From the NCBI GenBank assembly GCA_023245265.1, contig JAHFKQ010000001.1:1-43617 (forward strand): 43,617 nt of DNA, written 5' to 3'. The notes beneath the pieces are model-generated. The model saw only the letters and a program-made list of their open reading frames with translations, did no database searches and had not been told where the DNA came from. The position numbers and the translations under genes are program-made. Positions 2,024 to 29,154 of the stretch are shown one piece after another (within the stretch, counting starts at the first letter, position 1; each line of letters starts with the position of its first letter). Source of the DNA: Candidatus Collierbacteria bacterium. GTDB lineage: Bacteria > Patescibacteriota > Microgenomatia > UBA1400 > MFAQ01.

Positions 2024-2143
2024 TGCCCGGCGATGATCTACTTTCGCAATCAGTTGCCCAATCACTATCATCGACGCTGACCTGTTTCACTTCTCTGTTC
2101 GAAATGGGAAGAGGTGGTTCCAAGTCGCACAAATCACCGGACA
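2024..2143 (-). rRNA. rrf: 5S ribosomal RNA
   Basis: 120 nt. Helix I closes 5'-UGUCCGGUGAU with AUCGCCGGGCA-3'. Contains the conserved CCCAUUUCGAACAGAGAAGUGAAAC block. Confidence 0.9.
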
Positions 2144-2261
2144 GGAAAAGGGTCGATGCGACAATCCCTTTCCTGTCAGGTAATAAGTAAATTTTAAACT
2201 ACTTAGGATATTACTCCCTGAATAGTGAATAGATTTGCAAAAAGATAGCACGAGTAATATT

Positions 2262-5200
2262 GATTTACTCTTCGAACATTAGTACAGATAACCTAAACAA
2301 TTTACATTGCTTACAGCCTCTGCCTATCAACGTTGTAGTCTACAACGGTTCTTTCGTCCCTCACGGGACATGGATTTCTCATCTTGGGAATGGCTTCTCG
2401 CTTAGATGCATTCAGCGATTATCCAATACCATTGTGGCTACCCAGCAATGCGCCTGACGGCAACAACTGGCACACCAGGGAATGGCTCATCTCGGTCCTC
2501 TCGTACTGGAGACAAACTCCCTCAAAAATCCCACGCTGACAGCGGATAGAGACCAACCTGTCTTACGACGGTTTGAACCCAGCTCACGTAGCGCTTTAAT
2601 GGGCGAACAGACCAACCCTTGGGACCTTCTTCAGCCCCAGGATGCGCTGAGCCGACCAAAATATATAGAAAATTCTATGTATTGTGCTCTCCAACTATTA
2701 CTAGTGGTTTGGACTATATCTTTCGTATTAGAAACTTTTTATATTCACTCGTTTCTGCTACTTATTGGCGTGTTATATCCTATTTAAAATAGGGTATCTC
2801 ACCATAATCAAACTAATGACTATGGATCAGTCTCTACGGGGTCAATTCTTTCGAACGACTTCCCACGATGTTAACCTTAAGTGTTCATTTCAAGGCCTTC
2901 TTCGTTATAAGCCAAATTTATTTCCTCGACATGTTTGGGTCATTGTCTATCGAGGTAGCGAACCGCACCGTCGCTGTGGACGCTCAGGTGCGACTACTCT
3001 GTTATCCCCGGGGTAGCTTTTATCCGTTAAGCCCGGTACCTCCCACGAAGTACACGAGGATCACTTAGACCTACTTTCGTATCTGATCGACTTGTATGTC
3101 TCACAGTTAAGCACCCATATACCTATGCGCTTACACTCCGATTTCCATCCGGAGAAAGGGTACCTTTGTGCGCTTGCGTTACTCTTTAGCAAGCAACCTC
3201 CCCAGTTAAACTACCCACCAGACAGTGTTCCCTCCAAAGTTTGCATTTGGATTAGGTTAGAAACATGCGTCGCAAAGAGAGGTATTTCATTGTCGTATCA
3301 ACAATAAATTGCTAACACTCCCTCCTATGCTAAACAGTTACAGCACACATTTCAGTGCCAAGTTGTAGTAAAGCTCCACGGGGTCTTTTTGTCCTGCTGC
3401 CAGTAGGCCGCATCTTCACAGCCAATTCAAATTCGCCGAGTCTCTTCTCAAGACAGTTATAAAGTCGTTTCACCTTTCGTGCAGGTCGGAACTTACCCGA
3501 CAAGGAATTTCGCTACCATAGAACAGTTATAGTTACTGCTGCCGTTCACCGGGGCTTCAATTGCAGGCTCACAAAATCTTGCGATTCTGGTCACCCACGC
3601 ATTTAACCTTCCGGCACTGGGCAGGTTTCAGCCTGTATACTTAAGATTTCTCTTTTGCACAGACCTGTGTTTTTGTTAAACAGCCGCTTTATACTCTTTT
3701 GTTGTAGCCCAGATCTTAACCTGGGCAAGGCATCTCGTAGAACTTACGCCTAGCTAATTTGCCGAGTTCCTTAAGAAGAGTTCTCTCGCTATCCTTGGTC
3801 TACTCGACCAGAGCACCTGTGTCGGTTTGTGGTACGGATTATCTGCACTCTCATTGCGACGCTTTTCTCGGAAACTGAAATCATCCATCTTGCCCACCTT
3901 ACGGCAGACTCGTATTCATAACTCGTATAAACGCCACTGCGGATTTGCCAACAGTGACTGACTTGCTATTTAAGCGTATGTATCTTCAACACACCGCTTG
4001 GACTATCCAACTTCGTCCCGCCCCAATTAATAACGATTACAGACAAGGACTGGAATATCAACCAGTAATCCATCGGCTACGCCATAAAGGCCTTACCTAA
4101 GGGTCGCCTTACTCTACGTCGACGAACGTTGCGTAGAAAACCTTGCTCATTCGGATATAAAGATTCTCACTTTATTACGCTACTCATGCCGGCATTCTCA
4201 CTTCTTGCTGCTCCAGAATACCTTCCGGTACGCCTTCAAAGCTACAAGAACGCTCCTCTACCAACCCGGTCTTGCGACCGTGTTCCCAAAATTCGGTAAT
4301 ACATTTAGCCTCGTTACATCTTCAGTCGTGTATCTCTCGGCTAGTGAGCTGTTACGCTTTCTTTCAAGGATGGCTGCTTCTGAGCCGACCTCCTAGGTGT
4401 CTGAGAAATGACACGTCTTTTACCACTTAATGTATATTTAGAGACCTTATTTGTGGGTCTGGGATGTTTCCCTTTCGCCCCCGGAGCTTAGCCCCCGGGT
4501 ACTGACTCCCGCACAATTGATATGGGTATTTGGAGTTTGGTTGAAAGACACGATTTTACTCGTGAAGTTCATTCAGTAACTCTACCCCCCATACCGTAAA
4601 TGCGAGGCCATGCCAAAACATGTTTCGAGGAGAACCAGCTATCTCCAGGTTCGTTAGGCATATTACCTCTAACCACAAGTCATCCGAGAATTTTGCGACA
4701 TTCAACGGTGCGGTCCTCCAGTCGACTTTCGTCGACCTTCAACCTGCTCATGGTTAGCTCACCTGGTTTCGGGTCTACACAACACAACTACACGCCCTGT
4801 TAAGACTTGGTTTCCCTTCGGCTTCCCGGAACATATCGGTTAACCTTGCTGTGTTGAGTAACTCGCCGGCTCATTCTTCAATAGGCACGCCGTCATCCGA
4901 ATAAATTCGGACTCCGACTGTTTGTTAGCAATCAGTTTCAGGATCTTTTAATAGGGCTACTCACCCTTCTTTTCACCTTTCCCTCGCGGTACTAGTTCAC
5001 TATCGGTCAGTAAAAATAATTAGTCTTGGACTGTGGTCAGCCCGGATTCGATCTAGAGTTTGCCGTCTCCAGATTTACTTAGGTACCAGACTTTAGTTTT
5101 TCCAATTTCGAATACGGGACTCTCACCCCCTATGGTCAACTATTCCAAATTGTTCTTCTATCAGAAAAACTAAGTTATGTCTGGCCCTGCAACCCCGTAA

Positions 5201-5480
5201 ATAAATTCACGGTTTAGACTCACCCCTGTTCGCTCGTCGCTTACTAAGGGGCTCTCATTCGATTTCTTTTCCTTTGGGTACTTAGATATTTCAGTTCCCC
5301 AAGTTCCCGAAACACAACTTGCGTTGCGTAACGACCAGATAAATCTGGTCAGGTTTCCCCATTCGGACACTGCCGGATCATAAGTTCTTGTCACCTCCCC
5401 GACAACTTTCGCAGACTTGAAACGTCCTTCTTCGGTTTTTACTGCCAAGGCATCCACTGATTGCTTGAGTAGAATAAATC
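2262..5480 (-). rRNA. rrl: 23S ribosomal RNA (interrupted by a 292-nt insertion at 2657-2948); ends approximate
   Basis: The reverse complement holds GTGGATGCCTTGGCAG near the 5' end. It also holds GGGATAACAG, CCTCGAT/GTCGGCTCAGC, GCTGAAGAAGGTCCCAAGGGTTGG and CAGTACGAGAGGACC blocks. About 2.93 kb remains once the insertion is removed. Confidence 0.95.
2657..2948 (-). other. Group I-like intron (no ORF) inserted in the 23S peptidyl-transferase centre
   Basis: It interrupts the conserved CCUCGAU|GUCGGCUC between U2504 and G2505 (E. coli numbering, aligned from memory). The 5' exon ends in U and the insert ends in G. Intron nt 19-25 (GUCGAGG) complement the 5' exon CCUCGAU. There are several strong internal hairpins, including one with a GAAA tetraloop. 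Confidence 0.7.
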
Positions 5481-5630
5481 AATACTATTTTGCTTCAAAT
5501 TTGAATTTGAATTCGTGCGATCTACTTGCATAATCTATTCACTTTTCAAGGAACAATCCTGAGCTCCAAGAGCTCGTGGTTGATTCTAAGGCGCTCTAGC
5601 CTCAGAGTCAATCACCAGATCTCGGTCCTG

Positions 5631-27476: not shown

Positions 27477-27554
27477 GGTAGATTTGTTTTAGACACTCAT
27501 CTACCAATAGTGTGGCGATATTATCATCGGACTCGTGAAGTCCTTAACTCCTAG

Positions 27555-29047
27555 AAAGGAGGTGATCCATCCGCACCTTCCAGTACGGATACCTTGTTAC
27601 GACTTAGCCCCCATCGCTAGTCTTACCTTAGGAGGCCCATCCCTTGCGGTTATGGGTACCTACTTCGGGCACTACTAACTTTGTTGACTTGACGGGCAGT
27701 GTGTACAAGAAACGAGAACGTATTCACCGCGGTGATGCTGATCCGCGATTACTATCAACTCCCCTTCATGCAGGCGAATTTCAGCCTGCAATCCGAACTG
27801 AGGATGGGTTTATAAGGATTAGCTCCGGCTCGCGCCTTGGCATCCCGTTGTCCCACCCATTACGCCATGTGTGTAGCCCAAGATATAAGCGCCATGCTGA
27901 TTTGACGTCATCCCCTCCTTCCTCCGCGGAAAAAACCGAGGCAGTCTGCTATGGATATTTAACATAGCACAGGGGTTGCGTTCGTTACGGCACTTAAGCC
28001 GACGCCTCACGACACGAACTGACGACAACCATGCAGCAGCTGTGTAACACTCTCGAAGAAGTCCTAGTTTCCTAGGATTTGCAGTTACATGTCAAATCTT
28101 GGTAAGGTTCAAGGTTTCGTATCCAATTAAACCACATGGCACGCTGATTGTGCGTTTCCCCGTCAATTCCTTTGAGTTTTAGCCTTGCGGCCGTACTCCC
28201 CAGGCGGAACACTTAACGCGTTAGCTTACGCCACTCCCCTTGCGAGAAATAGCTAGTGTTCATTGTTTACGGCTAGGACTACAGGGGTCTCTAATCCCTT
28301 TCGCTCCCCTAGCTTTCGTTCATCAGCGTCTGGTATGTCCTAGTTACCTGCCTTCGCTTTTGGTATTCTTCTTGATATCAACGGATTTCACTCCTCCACC
28401 AAGAATTCTAGTAACCCCGAACAACCACTAGTCTGTTAGTTTATCGAGCATCTCTGGAGTTGAGCCCCAGGCTTTAACCCAATACTTAACAAACCGCCTA
28501 CGATACTCTTTACGCCCAATAAATCCGGACAACGCTTGCGCCCTACGTATTACCGAGGCTTCTGGCACGTAGTTAGCAGGCGCTTTCTAATAGGGTACCA
28601 TCAAAATTTTTTCCCCTATCACAGTGGTTTACGACCCGAGGGCCTTCATCCCACACGCAGTGTCACTGCATCAGACTTTCGTCCATTGTGCAAAATTCCC
28701 AGTTGCTGCCATCCGTAGATGTATGCTCCGTGTCTAAGTAACATTGTGGGGGGCCACGCTCTCACGCCCCCTAGCCGTCATAGCCTTGGTAAGCCATTAC
28801 CTTACCAACTAGCTGATAGCGAACAGGCTCATCTTTCTGCGACCGGTTAAGGTCTTTCTCCTTGCGGACTTATGCGGTATTAATTGGCCTTTCGGCCAGC
28901 TATTCCCCACAAAAAGGTAGATTCCTGCCATTCCTCACCCGTCTGCCACTAGTTCCACCTAGCCTTGCGGCTAAGCTTCCCCCGTTCGACTTGCATGCTT
29001 AAGGTACACTGCCAGCGTTCGTCCTGAACCAGGATCAAATTCTCAAA
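27555..29047 (-). rRNA. rrs: 16S ribosomal RNA (about 1.49 kb, no insertion)
   Basis: 5' end GAGAATTTGATCCTGGTTCAG. 3' end AAGTCGTAACAAGGTATCCGTACTGGAAGGTGCGGATGGATCACCTCCTTT. Conserved 530, 790, 900, 1100 and 1400 blocks are present. Confidence 0.96.
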
Positions 29048-29065
29048 AAAAATTGAATAGATTAC

Positions 29066-29154
29066 GTCACTCTCGCCACTCTTCAAACGACAAAAAAATA
29101 AAAAATATACAAATAATTGAAATCAGCTCAATTATCTGTTTGCTGCTTCACTTG
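29066..29154 (-). other. 16S leader containing both 5' halves of the processing stem
   Basis: Complementarity to 27434-27476 (14 bp plus ~15 bp) brackets only the 16S. Confidence 0.75.
29103..29130 (-). promoter_or_regulatory. Candidate 16S promoter
   Basis: TTGAGC-N16-TATATT on the minus strand, about 55 nt upstream of the mature 5' end. It lies 3' of the AACAAGTGAAGCAG leader arm (29141-29154), so at least one of the two calls needs checking. The context is AT-rich. Confidence 0.45.

Follow-up and report, generated by a model that had tools for sequence, protein, structure and literature searches.

In Escherichia coli, the rRNA (rrn) operons carry tRNA-Ile and tRNA-Ala in their 16S-23S spacers, together with tandem P1/P2 promoters, boxA antitermination and RNase III processing stems. 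In this work, we analysed the rRNA locus of a Candidatus Collierbacteria bacterium, in which the same RNA genes stand in the same order but the rRNA genes span 27 kb. The stretch of DNA studied, hereafter the window, covers positions 1 to 43,617 (43,617 nucleotides) of contig JAHFKQ010000001.1 (assembly GCA_023245265.1), i.e. the entire contig. Unlinked rRNA genes are widespread and phylogenetically conserved, Patescibacteria being one such clade, and have been defined by a closest 16S-23S distance greater than 1500 bp (Brewer et al., ISME J 2020, 10.1101/705046). Among circularised genomes of the Candidate Phyla Radiation (CPR), 27 of 34 were found to be unlinked by Lui, Nielsen and Arkin in 2021 (PMC8172020). 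Their type D (Fig. 3), termed "unlinked by distance", groups layouts in which all rRNA genes share a strand and are separated by more than 2000 bp, genes of the opposite strand lying between them and precluding a common promoter (PMC8172020).

All five RNA genes of the window were placed by Rfam and ARAGORN on the minus strand, in the classical order announced by the original prediction: the 16S rRNA gene at 29050-27555 (RF00177, 1368 bits, full length), tRNA-Ile(GAU) at 25456-25382 and tRNA-Ala(UGC) at 5703-5630 (each by ARAGORN and Rfam), the 23S rRNA gene at 5480-2260 (RF02541, 2320 bits) and the 5S rRNA gene at 2141-2025 (RF00001, 81 bits). The gap between 16S and tRNA-Ile, expected to be about 2 kb with three protein genes, measures 2,098 nt and holds three open reading frames (ORFs). 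That between tRNA-Ile and tRNA-Ala agrees with the expected 19.7 kb (19,678 nt) with genes on both strands (six strand switches), but about 24 genes were counted there instead of about 28. A distance of 22,075 nt, with ~27 protein-coding ORFs, separates the 3' end of 16S (27555) from the 5' end of 23S (5480), well beyond the 1500 bp of Brewer et al., and the arrangement is real and phylogenetically conserved. The locus also belongs to type D of Lui et al., all rRNA genes being on the minus strand with plus-strand genes at 7079-7909, 9195-9812 and 10701-17267. Of the features of a canonical operon, it retains the order on one strand and lacks a short spacer free of protein genes (~0.4 kb, at most 1.5 kb). 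One 16S and one 23S gene were found in the genome (797 kb, 78 contigs, 87 % complete), both in the window, and the genome tRNA inventory gave tRNA-Ile(GAU) and tRNA-Ala(UGC) as the sole gene for their respective isoacceptors.

Compared with the canonical rrn operon, the locus shares the gene order, the identities of the spacer tRNAs, tandem promoter-like elements, boxA-like motifs and separate 16S and 23S stems. It differs by the 22 kb and ~27 protein genes between 16S and 23S, by predicted terminators after 16S, after tRNA-Ile and before tRNA-Ala, and by predicted promoters proper to tRNA-Ile, tRNA-Ala and 23S. It resembles published CPR cases by its small genome, its single rRNA copy and the conservation of the trait within clades. 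The layout is thus of an already published kind and its novelty is low, while that of the leader preceding tRNA-Ala, described below, is moderate. Whereas the surveys of Brewer et al. and Lui et al. classify by distance only, we place the break between tRNA-Ile and tRNA-Ala and describe a set of fill genes conserved throughout the family, spacers of graded content in the sister families, an insertion site mapped to the nucleotide in gaps that appear still to be gaining genes within the genus, and promoter and terminator signals whose conservation extends to nearly linked relatives, i.e. predicted uncoupling signals probably older than the spreading. The spacer of the Borrelia rRNA cluster is only a few kb long. 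That cluster is made of 16S and tRNA-Ala, then tRNA-Ile on the other strand, then a tandem 23S-5S (PMC4370689). In both systems the rRNA genes remain in one neighbourhood, the spacer is expanded, its tRNAs are parted between the 16S and 23S sides and one tRNA can be inverted, as is tRNA-Ile in three relatives of the window (G036, G015 and G006); Borrelia differs in that tRNA-Ala stays with 16S, 23S-5S is duplicated and the lineage is unrelated.

We consider it quite probable that this is a genuine, vertically inherited unlinked rRNA locus, in which an ancestral operon was cut into separate units and then filled stepwise. An ancestral 16S, tRNA-Ile, tRNA-Ala, 23S, 5S operon would have been split into at least three, probably four transcription units, i.e. 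(i) a unit holding only 16S, provided with two promoters in tandem, a boxA-like element, a terminator and a processing stem of its own; (ii) tRNA-Ile alone, with an extended -10 promoter and a terminator; (iii) tRNA-Ala behind a promoter and a terminator-containing leader; and (iv) a 23S-5S unit, whose boxA-like leader, processing stem and terminator are complemented by a further, separate promoter. With the units independent of each other, genes could have entered the gaps harmlessly, and these would have been filled in steps, from relocated housekeeping genes (those for an MBL-fold hydrolase, the tRNA-dihydrouridine synthase Dus, a SIMPL protein and a HAD hydrolase), from family-specific genes (a 671-aa protein and a two-component pair) and lately from a cassette carrying an FNT (formate/nitrite) transporter gene. 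Order and strand would have been kept because the region underwent no inversion and the rRNA genes stay co-oriented with replication. The locus would then be a further well-documented CPR case in which small- and large-subunit rRNAs are made from separate, predicted units, and amplicon typing across 16S, the internal transcribed spacer and 23S cannot work for this lineage.

Since rRNA genes are classic misassembly points in metagenome-assembled genomes, and this one is fragmented and incomplete, a contig misjoining rRNA genes of different organisms or genome parts had to be considered. Such a chimera, the objection foreseen in the original prediction, was looked for by synteny and did not appear. 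An independent contig of 688,609 bp from another sample (ENA ERZ27280322, sibling L109), located via a relative of the 671-aa protein, is 91-93 % identical to the window and collinear with it from 31877 to 9495, a stretch that includes 16S, FNT, tRNA-Ile and the array of genes as far as MBL. The closed genome G025, of the same genus, is collinear gene by gene from 16S to 23S (its 23S runs across the record origin), and the closed G036, of another genus, shares the architecture. On the large-subunit side, the junction of SIMPL, tRNA-Ala and 23S, with HAD upstream, recurs in five assemblies (G025, G026, G029, G036 and G037). Base composition, GC skew and tetranucleotide usage of the window are even and genome-typical. 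A chimera is accordingly exceedingly improbable, the least credible of the explanations weighed here, and where relatives show the same synteny, contigs of such genomes that carry rRNA genes can be trusted.

The layout is a family trait. The GTDB family of the window (f1) comprises 44 genomes of 0.5-1.3 Mb, several with an interrupted 16S, and adjacent 16S and 23S were found in none of the members where this could be judged. Proteins of G025 bear NCBI names from Candidatus Collierbacteria, which identifies the organism as a Collierbacteria-type member of the Microgenomates (CPR/Patescibacteria). Strand and order are the same at 16S-23S separations of 17.6 kb in G025, 22.1 kb in the window and 31.9 kb in G036. 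The backbone common to the family reads 16S, tRNA-Ile, (C39 peptidases), Dus, 671 aa, response regulator, kinase, variable middle, MBL, HAD, SIMPL, tRNA-Ala, 23S, 5S.

The prediction that the parts are transcribed independently was supported within the limits of sequence analysis. Upstream of tRNA-Ile, the foreseen extended -10 box, TGCTAAAAT, was recovered at 25480-25472 (minus strand), ~16 nt before the tRNA; it stands at a fixed distance in two genera (g1, g9) and is also found in families f3, f19 and f14. The strong terminator foreseen behind this tRNA was likewise found by terminator scan at 25376-25347 (minus strand), with a 9-bp stem (hairpin 25376-25354) and T7. Before tRNA-Ala, the candidate promoter holds up as TTGTGT-17-extended -10 TGGTATACT at 5849-5821 (minus strand), its hexamers being kept in seven genomes with a drifting spacer; a terminator-containing leader lies between it and the tRNA. 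A putative 23S promoter, TTGACT-17-TAGAAT at 5611-5583 (minus strand), emerged from a consensus scan: both hexamers are invariant in five genomes of two genera and the 17-nt spacer drifts at constant length, which is the classical footprint of a real promoter. In three relatives tRNA-Ile(GAU) and the neighbouring 16S are on different strands (G036, L003 5007-5081; G015, L007 12029-12104; G006, L009 3105-3179), so that this tRNA seems to have been inverted in place either repeatedly or at an early point in the history of the family.

The 16S gene is preceded by two promoter-like elements on the minus strand: P1, with extended -10 TGTGTTAAAAT at 29276-29266 (consensus scan), whose TGnTAAAAT is invariant in six genomes of two genera while the flanks drift, and P2, read from the sequence as TTGCGG-17-TGTTAAAAT at 29198-29170, whose -35 CTTGC and extended -10 are kept in six genomes of two genera with a variable spacer. 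They are followed at 29163-29143 by a segment invariant in six genomes, which combines the boxA-like GCTCGTTAACAA, which resembles the E. coli boxA consensus, with the 5' strand of the outer 16S processing stem (AACAAGTGAAGCAG). Behind 16S, the predicted terminator-like hairpin with T6 was confirmed by reading at 27420-27398 (minus strand); it has a homolog at the same place in G025 and equivalents 3' of 16S in G045, G076, G061, G087 and G095.

Order and strand kept along one strand, with boxA-like elements in the 16S and 23S leaders, would also fit a single operon in which boxA-modified RNA polymerase reads through all internal terminators and the protein genes are excised from the precursor; rrn antitermination complexes do ignore intrinsic terminators. 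Such a polymerase would, however, have to cover 6.5 kb antisense to a block of nine plus-strand genes whose terminators are convergent, across six strand switches, past the conserved promoters before tRNA-Ile, tRNA-Ala and 23S. Moreover, tRNA-Ile is inverted in three relatives and the two halves of the locus are inverted in G087 of another family, and layouts of this kind are classed as unlinked by Lui et al. (PMC8172020). The internal promoters, terminators and antisense blocks thus argue against a single primary transcript from the 16S promoters, an explanation we hold to be very improbable, if a shade less so than a chimera; the conserved internal signals, the 6.5-kb antisense block and the tRNA-Ile inversion appear to be the strongest arguments for independent units.

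The long-range stem around 16S, put forward in the original prediction as a further sign of independence, is real as a pairing and was rejected as such a sign. The outer leader/trailer stem pairs 29156-29143 with 27447-27434 and a second one, in a cofold of leader and trailer, pairs about 29084-29067 with 27476-27457; the trailer with the 3' strands of both (27476-27434, minus strand) is conserved in G025. The 23S here also has its own stem, and canonical co-transcribed operons have both.

In order to find intermediate states, as had been proposed, closed or near-closed genomes of other families of the order were examined, and graded spacer contents were found. In G045 (f3), 16S is followed after 135 nt by tRNA-Ile, then by 1.16 kb with one unrelated P-loop ORF, tRNA-Ala and, 180 nt further, 23S. 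In family f19, the tRNA-Ile to tRNA-Ala spacer measures 1.6 kb with the MBL gene only, antisense, in G076, and 3.5 kb with Dus and MBL in G061, and in G087 the 16S-Ile and MBL-Ala-23S halves are 88 kb apart and inverted. It reaches 10.3 kb of unrelated genes in G064 (f5) and 17-30 kb in the family of the window. In G094 (f12), 12.8 kb are inserted between 16S and tRNA-Ile instead, and in G095 (f14) the two halves are about 540 kb apart. In all 11 genomes examined the two tRNAs are at least 1.16 kb apart, while tRNA-Ala stays 110-280 nt from 23S and, in most of the eleven, tRNA-Ile is close to 16S. A 16S tree groups f1 with f19 (support 100/99) and places the short-spacer genomes close to the base of this clade.

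The signals described above extend along this series. A post-16S terminator, TGTTAAAAT before tRNA-Ile and a CTCCG...CGGAG hairpin with T-run before tRNA-Ala occur in G045, G076, G061, G087, G094, G064 and G095 (not every element in each), even in genomes with spacers of only 135-190 nt. Since terminators and promoters are thus present in nearly linked relatives, the predicted uncoupling appears older than the physical spreading, and we infer that transcriptional uncoupling probably came first and enabled the filling.

Filling is best visible between 16S and tRNA-Ile, where the three genes of the window form a lineage-specific cassette (27395-25506, minus strand) whose flanks abut in G025, in which it is absent. 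There the post-16S terminator AAATCCGCTTTAAGGCGGGTTTTTT directly joins GTGCTCATTTT...TGTTAGAAT...tRNA-Ile and the entire spacer is 227 nt, whereas the same two flanks are 1.9 kb apart in the window. The insertion site is hence mapped to the nucleotide, between the post-16S terminator and GTGCTCATTTT, upstream of the tRNA-Ile promoter. The cassette, all on the minus strand, has its own strong predicted promoter TTGACA-18-TAGAAT with upstream TG (27384-27355) and contains a 99-aa ORF (27327-27028), a terminator (27020-27003), the FNT transporter gene (26911-26021; Pfam PF01226, E 2.7e-73), a second terminator (26013-25996), a second promoter (25975-25947), a 130-aa ORF (25933-25541) and a final terminator abutting GTGCTCATTTT (25527-25506), promoters and terminators being called by scans. 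Partial versions exist in close relatives: the gap holds no gene in G025, an 86-aa ORF and a 115-aa homolog of the 130-aa ORF in G028, and FNT with a 122-aa ORF, without the 99-aa ORF, in L109. The FNT gene was sought in the 43 other genomes of the family and was not found. The gaps thus appear still to take up genes within the genus, and insertion of the FNT cassette seems to be very recent.

The core order Dus, 671 aa, response regulator, kinase ... MBL, HAD, SIMPL is common to g1 and g9 as a block. The spread may therefore not have been progressive: one or two large rearrangements (a translocation or an inversion pair) would have placed a ready-made block in the family ancestor, and the other short spacers would be unrelated or reduced. 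The weak ladder of the tree, the unrelated content of the large insertions in G094 and G064 and the position of SIMPL near 16S-Ile in G095 also speak for such an event. Against it, MBL alone and then Dus with MBL occupy the same spacer in the sister family, the fill genes differ in history (some being absent and some elsewhere in outgroup genomes), the middle of the block varies between close relatives, and the 16S-Ile gap directly shows stepwise insertion among members of the genus (with no, two, two or three genes). We regard this alternative as unlikely, though it deserves distinctly more credit than a chimera or a single operon. The differing histories of the fill genes and the graded spacers make accretion in several steps, drawing on more than one source, likelier than the transfer of a single block, the direction of the series being read from the 16S tree. 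The idea of a former spacer progressively invaded by genes therefore fared well as regards the graded series and the mapped cassette, and less well as regards direction, for which the tree is weakly resolved.

Several points weigh against stepwise filling of a divided operon. All promoters and terminators are predictions, supported by conservation. The inner ladder nodes of the f1 and f19 clade reach a support of 64-77 and the tree was midpoint-rooted without an outgroup, which leaves room for shrinkage from a larger ancestral spacer, and sampling outside the family amounted to one to three genomes per family. The SIMPL homolog of G095 lies near 16S-tRNA-Ile, and some fill genes may be older rRNA neighbours. 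Lastly, in the window, G025 and G028 only 12 nt separate the end of the terminator hairpin from tRNA-Ala; as this leaves no room for a further promoter before an essential single-copy tRNA gene, transcription must pass the terminator at a useful rate in these three genomes, i.e. tRNA-Ala must rely on read-through.

The leader of tRNA-Ala (5814-5704, minus strand), delineated by folding and comparison, consists of a 5' hairpin, a 12-codon ORF within a long hairpin and a terminator. It starts with a 23-nt invariant stretch that forms the 5' hairpin and ends 2 nt before the ATG of the ORF (MKINRTVSTKAP, 5797-5759, minus strand), which is followed by a T-run and by the terminator hairpin with T6 (5733-5715, minus strand), kept with compensatory changes in the family. 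Each of the six other families examined also has a hairpin-type terminator before tRNA-Ala. An ORF of 11-14 codons occupies the same place in 15 family genomes, with frame and length kept and interior codons drifting; it ends in Pro-stop in 11 of the 15, ten of them as K-(A/S)-P-stop. Because indels in the loops misalign the arms, RNAalifold on a MAFFT alignment of leaders gave the 5' hairpin only, and each genome was folded separately and compared with dinucleotide shuffles. In 13 of 13 genomes, a single long hairpin has the ORF body as its 5' arm and the stop codon at its apex, the fold is more stable than at least 95 % of shuffles in 9 of 13, and divergent leaders (G036, G005 and G007a) retain its topology.

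Leader-peptide transcription attenuators are exemplified by the trpL and pyrBI leaders. Like them, the leader found here combines a promoter, a short ORF, an overlapping hairpin and an intrinsic terminator just before the gene. It differs from them in that no Shine-Dalgarno sequence (GGAGG-type) precedes the leader ATG, though the 16S 3' end has CCUCC, in that the ORF holds no regulatory codon runs, and in that folding with ribosome-like masking of the ORF gave no clear alternative antiterminator. With such masking the terminator persists in most genomes, and an alternative leader:terminator pairing is the minimum free energy structure in 3 of 8. The gated genes would also differ, being a tRNA and possibly rRNA, not biosynthetic enzymes. 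A search for Rfam families in the leader returned none, the Trp_leader hit (16.7 bits, E 0.78) being non-significant. According to the folding models, the conserved ORF end can be equally explained by the hairpin alone, and the terminator could either be leaky, behind a structured leader, or be regulated.

Only tentatively, and with a good deal more doubt than we attach to the history of the locus, do we propose that the leader is a new kind of attenuator gating the large-subunit half of the locus by translation or ribosome availability, and that the order-wide terminators flanking tRNA-Ile made the spacer a safe landing site for genes. Gating would concern tRNA-Ala, and possibly 23S-5S in the lineages without an extra 23S promoter. 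If the leader senses translation, it would provide a simple feedback loop on ribosome synthesis in minimally regulated organisms with a single rRNA copy.

In most relatives (L014, L018, L004, L017, L117, L118 and L119), 40-90 nt separate the terminator from tRNA-Ala and carry GCACATTWTT(AACAA), a segment resembling boxA; it is deleted in the window, G025 and G028.

Downstream of tRNA-Ala and the putative 23S promoter, the 23S leader (5575-5543, minus strand, by alignment) carries a hairpin GAGCTC-TTG-GAGCTC and the boxA-like TGTTCCTTGAAAA, followed by the 5' strand of the 23S processing stem, whose trailer side lies at about 2250-2215 (cofold); boxA-like motifs precede 23S in every family examined. 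At 3,221 nt, the 23S gene is ~296 nt longer than the Rfam model of 2,925 positions. A group-I-like insertion at ~3013-2691 (minus strand) matches RF00028 over its full length at 25.6 bits (E 0.0012), below the gathering score of 50, and lacks minus-strand ORFs of 80 aa or more. A terminator-like hairpin with T-run, read from the sequence, follows 5S at 2014-1991 (minus strand). The 23S-5S spacing is 118 nt in the window and ~1.1 kb in G025 (L006 3522-4781), where something appears to have been inserted.

The gap between the two tRNAs opens, on the tRNA-Ile side, with eight co-directional genes (25308-17264, minus strand; Pfam), coding for a C39 peptidase, a 132-aa protein, a C39-like protein of 251 aa, a 201-aa protein, Dus, the 671-aa protein, a response regulator and a CHASE-PAS histidine kinase. 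The order Dus, 671 aa, response regulator, kinase is kept in G025, G036, G035 and G040. The 671-aa gene was not found in families f19, f3 and f12 and is family-specific; an exact-match look-up of the Dus protein of the window gave no match. Dus is absent from G076, G087 and G045 and located elsewhere in G095.

A variable block of nine genes follows (10701-17267, plus strand; ORFs and Pfam), i.e. the antisense block of 6.5 kb with strong plus-strand terminators, which encodes a Nudix, a Nudix-like and a zinc-ribbon protein and several proteins of unknown function. It is only partly common to the relatives compared (G025 and G029). Its GC content is 0.485 against 0.454 for the genome, at the 93rd percentile among the 5-kb chunks of the genome itself, which makes it the most atypical part of the spacer by composition. 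The comparison of intervening genes with the rest of the genome that had been suggested was carried out on composition and tetranucleotides and gave no sign of foreign origin, all blocks lying within the genome's own spread.

Further along, a frameshifted gene copy (10598-9736, minus strand) was revealed by three-frame translation against L109: it consists of two overlapping ORFs (96 aa and 191 aa), is intact in L109 as a 284-aa gene with an HDFGR motif, and is either a pseudogene or an assembly error. The MBL-fold hydrolase gene (9195-9812, plus strand; PF00753) is the most widely shared occupant of the Ile-Ala spacer, being found there or adjoining tRNA-Ala in G076, G061 and G087 and across family f1. 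As a census marker in named genomes, it gave matches dominated by Firmicutes and other phyla, the protein family being universal. In the Shapirobacteria contig JAQWEN010000001.1 (L032 5148-7570), Dus and MBL are divergent neighbours and the 7 kb around them are free of rRNA genes; the two may have been paired before they came to reside in the rRNA spacer. The interval 5882-9148 completes the gap with a 173-aa ORF and the HAD hydrolase gene (minus strand), a 276-aa ORF (plus strand, 7079-7909) and SIMPL/DUF541 (minus strand), identified by Pfam. HAD and SIMPL adjoin tRNA-Ala in G025, G029, G026, G036 and G037, while in G087, G045 and G076 SIMPL and the rRNA genes are hundreds of kb apart.

Additional observations were made around the 16S gene. 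In G028, 16S (L011 1792-2520) carries near its 3' end a ~680-nt insertion with a 195-aa ORF, the true 3' end aligning at L011 2474-2584; it resembles the intron/homing-endonuclease insertions typical of CPR rRNA genes. In the window, a small ORF of ~59 aa (about 29450-29630, plus strand), with a lysine-rich N-terminus and a hydrophobic C-terminus, lies antisense between the terminator of the upstream gene and the 16S promoters, and is called as a 59-aa gene in the sibling contig. The gene mnmA (tRNA 2-thiouridylase, 30068-31279) is directly upstream of 16S, as it is in G045 of another family (L019 23-304). Two tRNA-modification genes, mnmA and Dus, hence flank the 16S-tRNA-Ile unit, which may be a coincidence.

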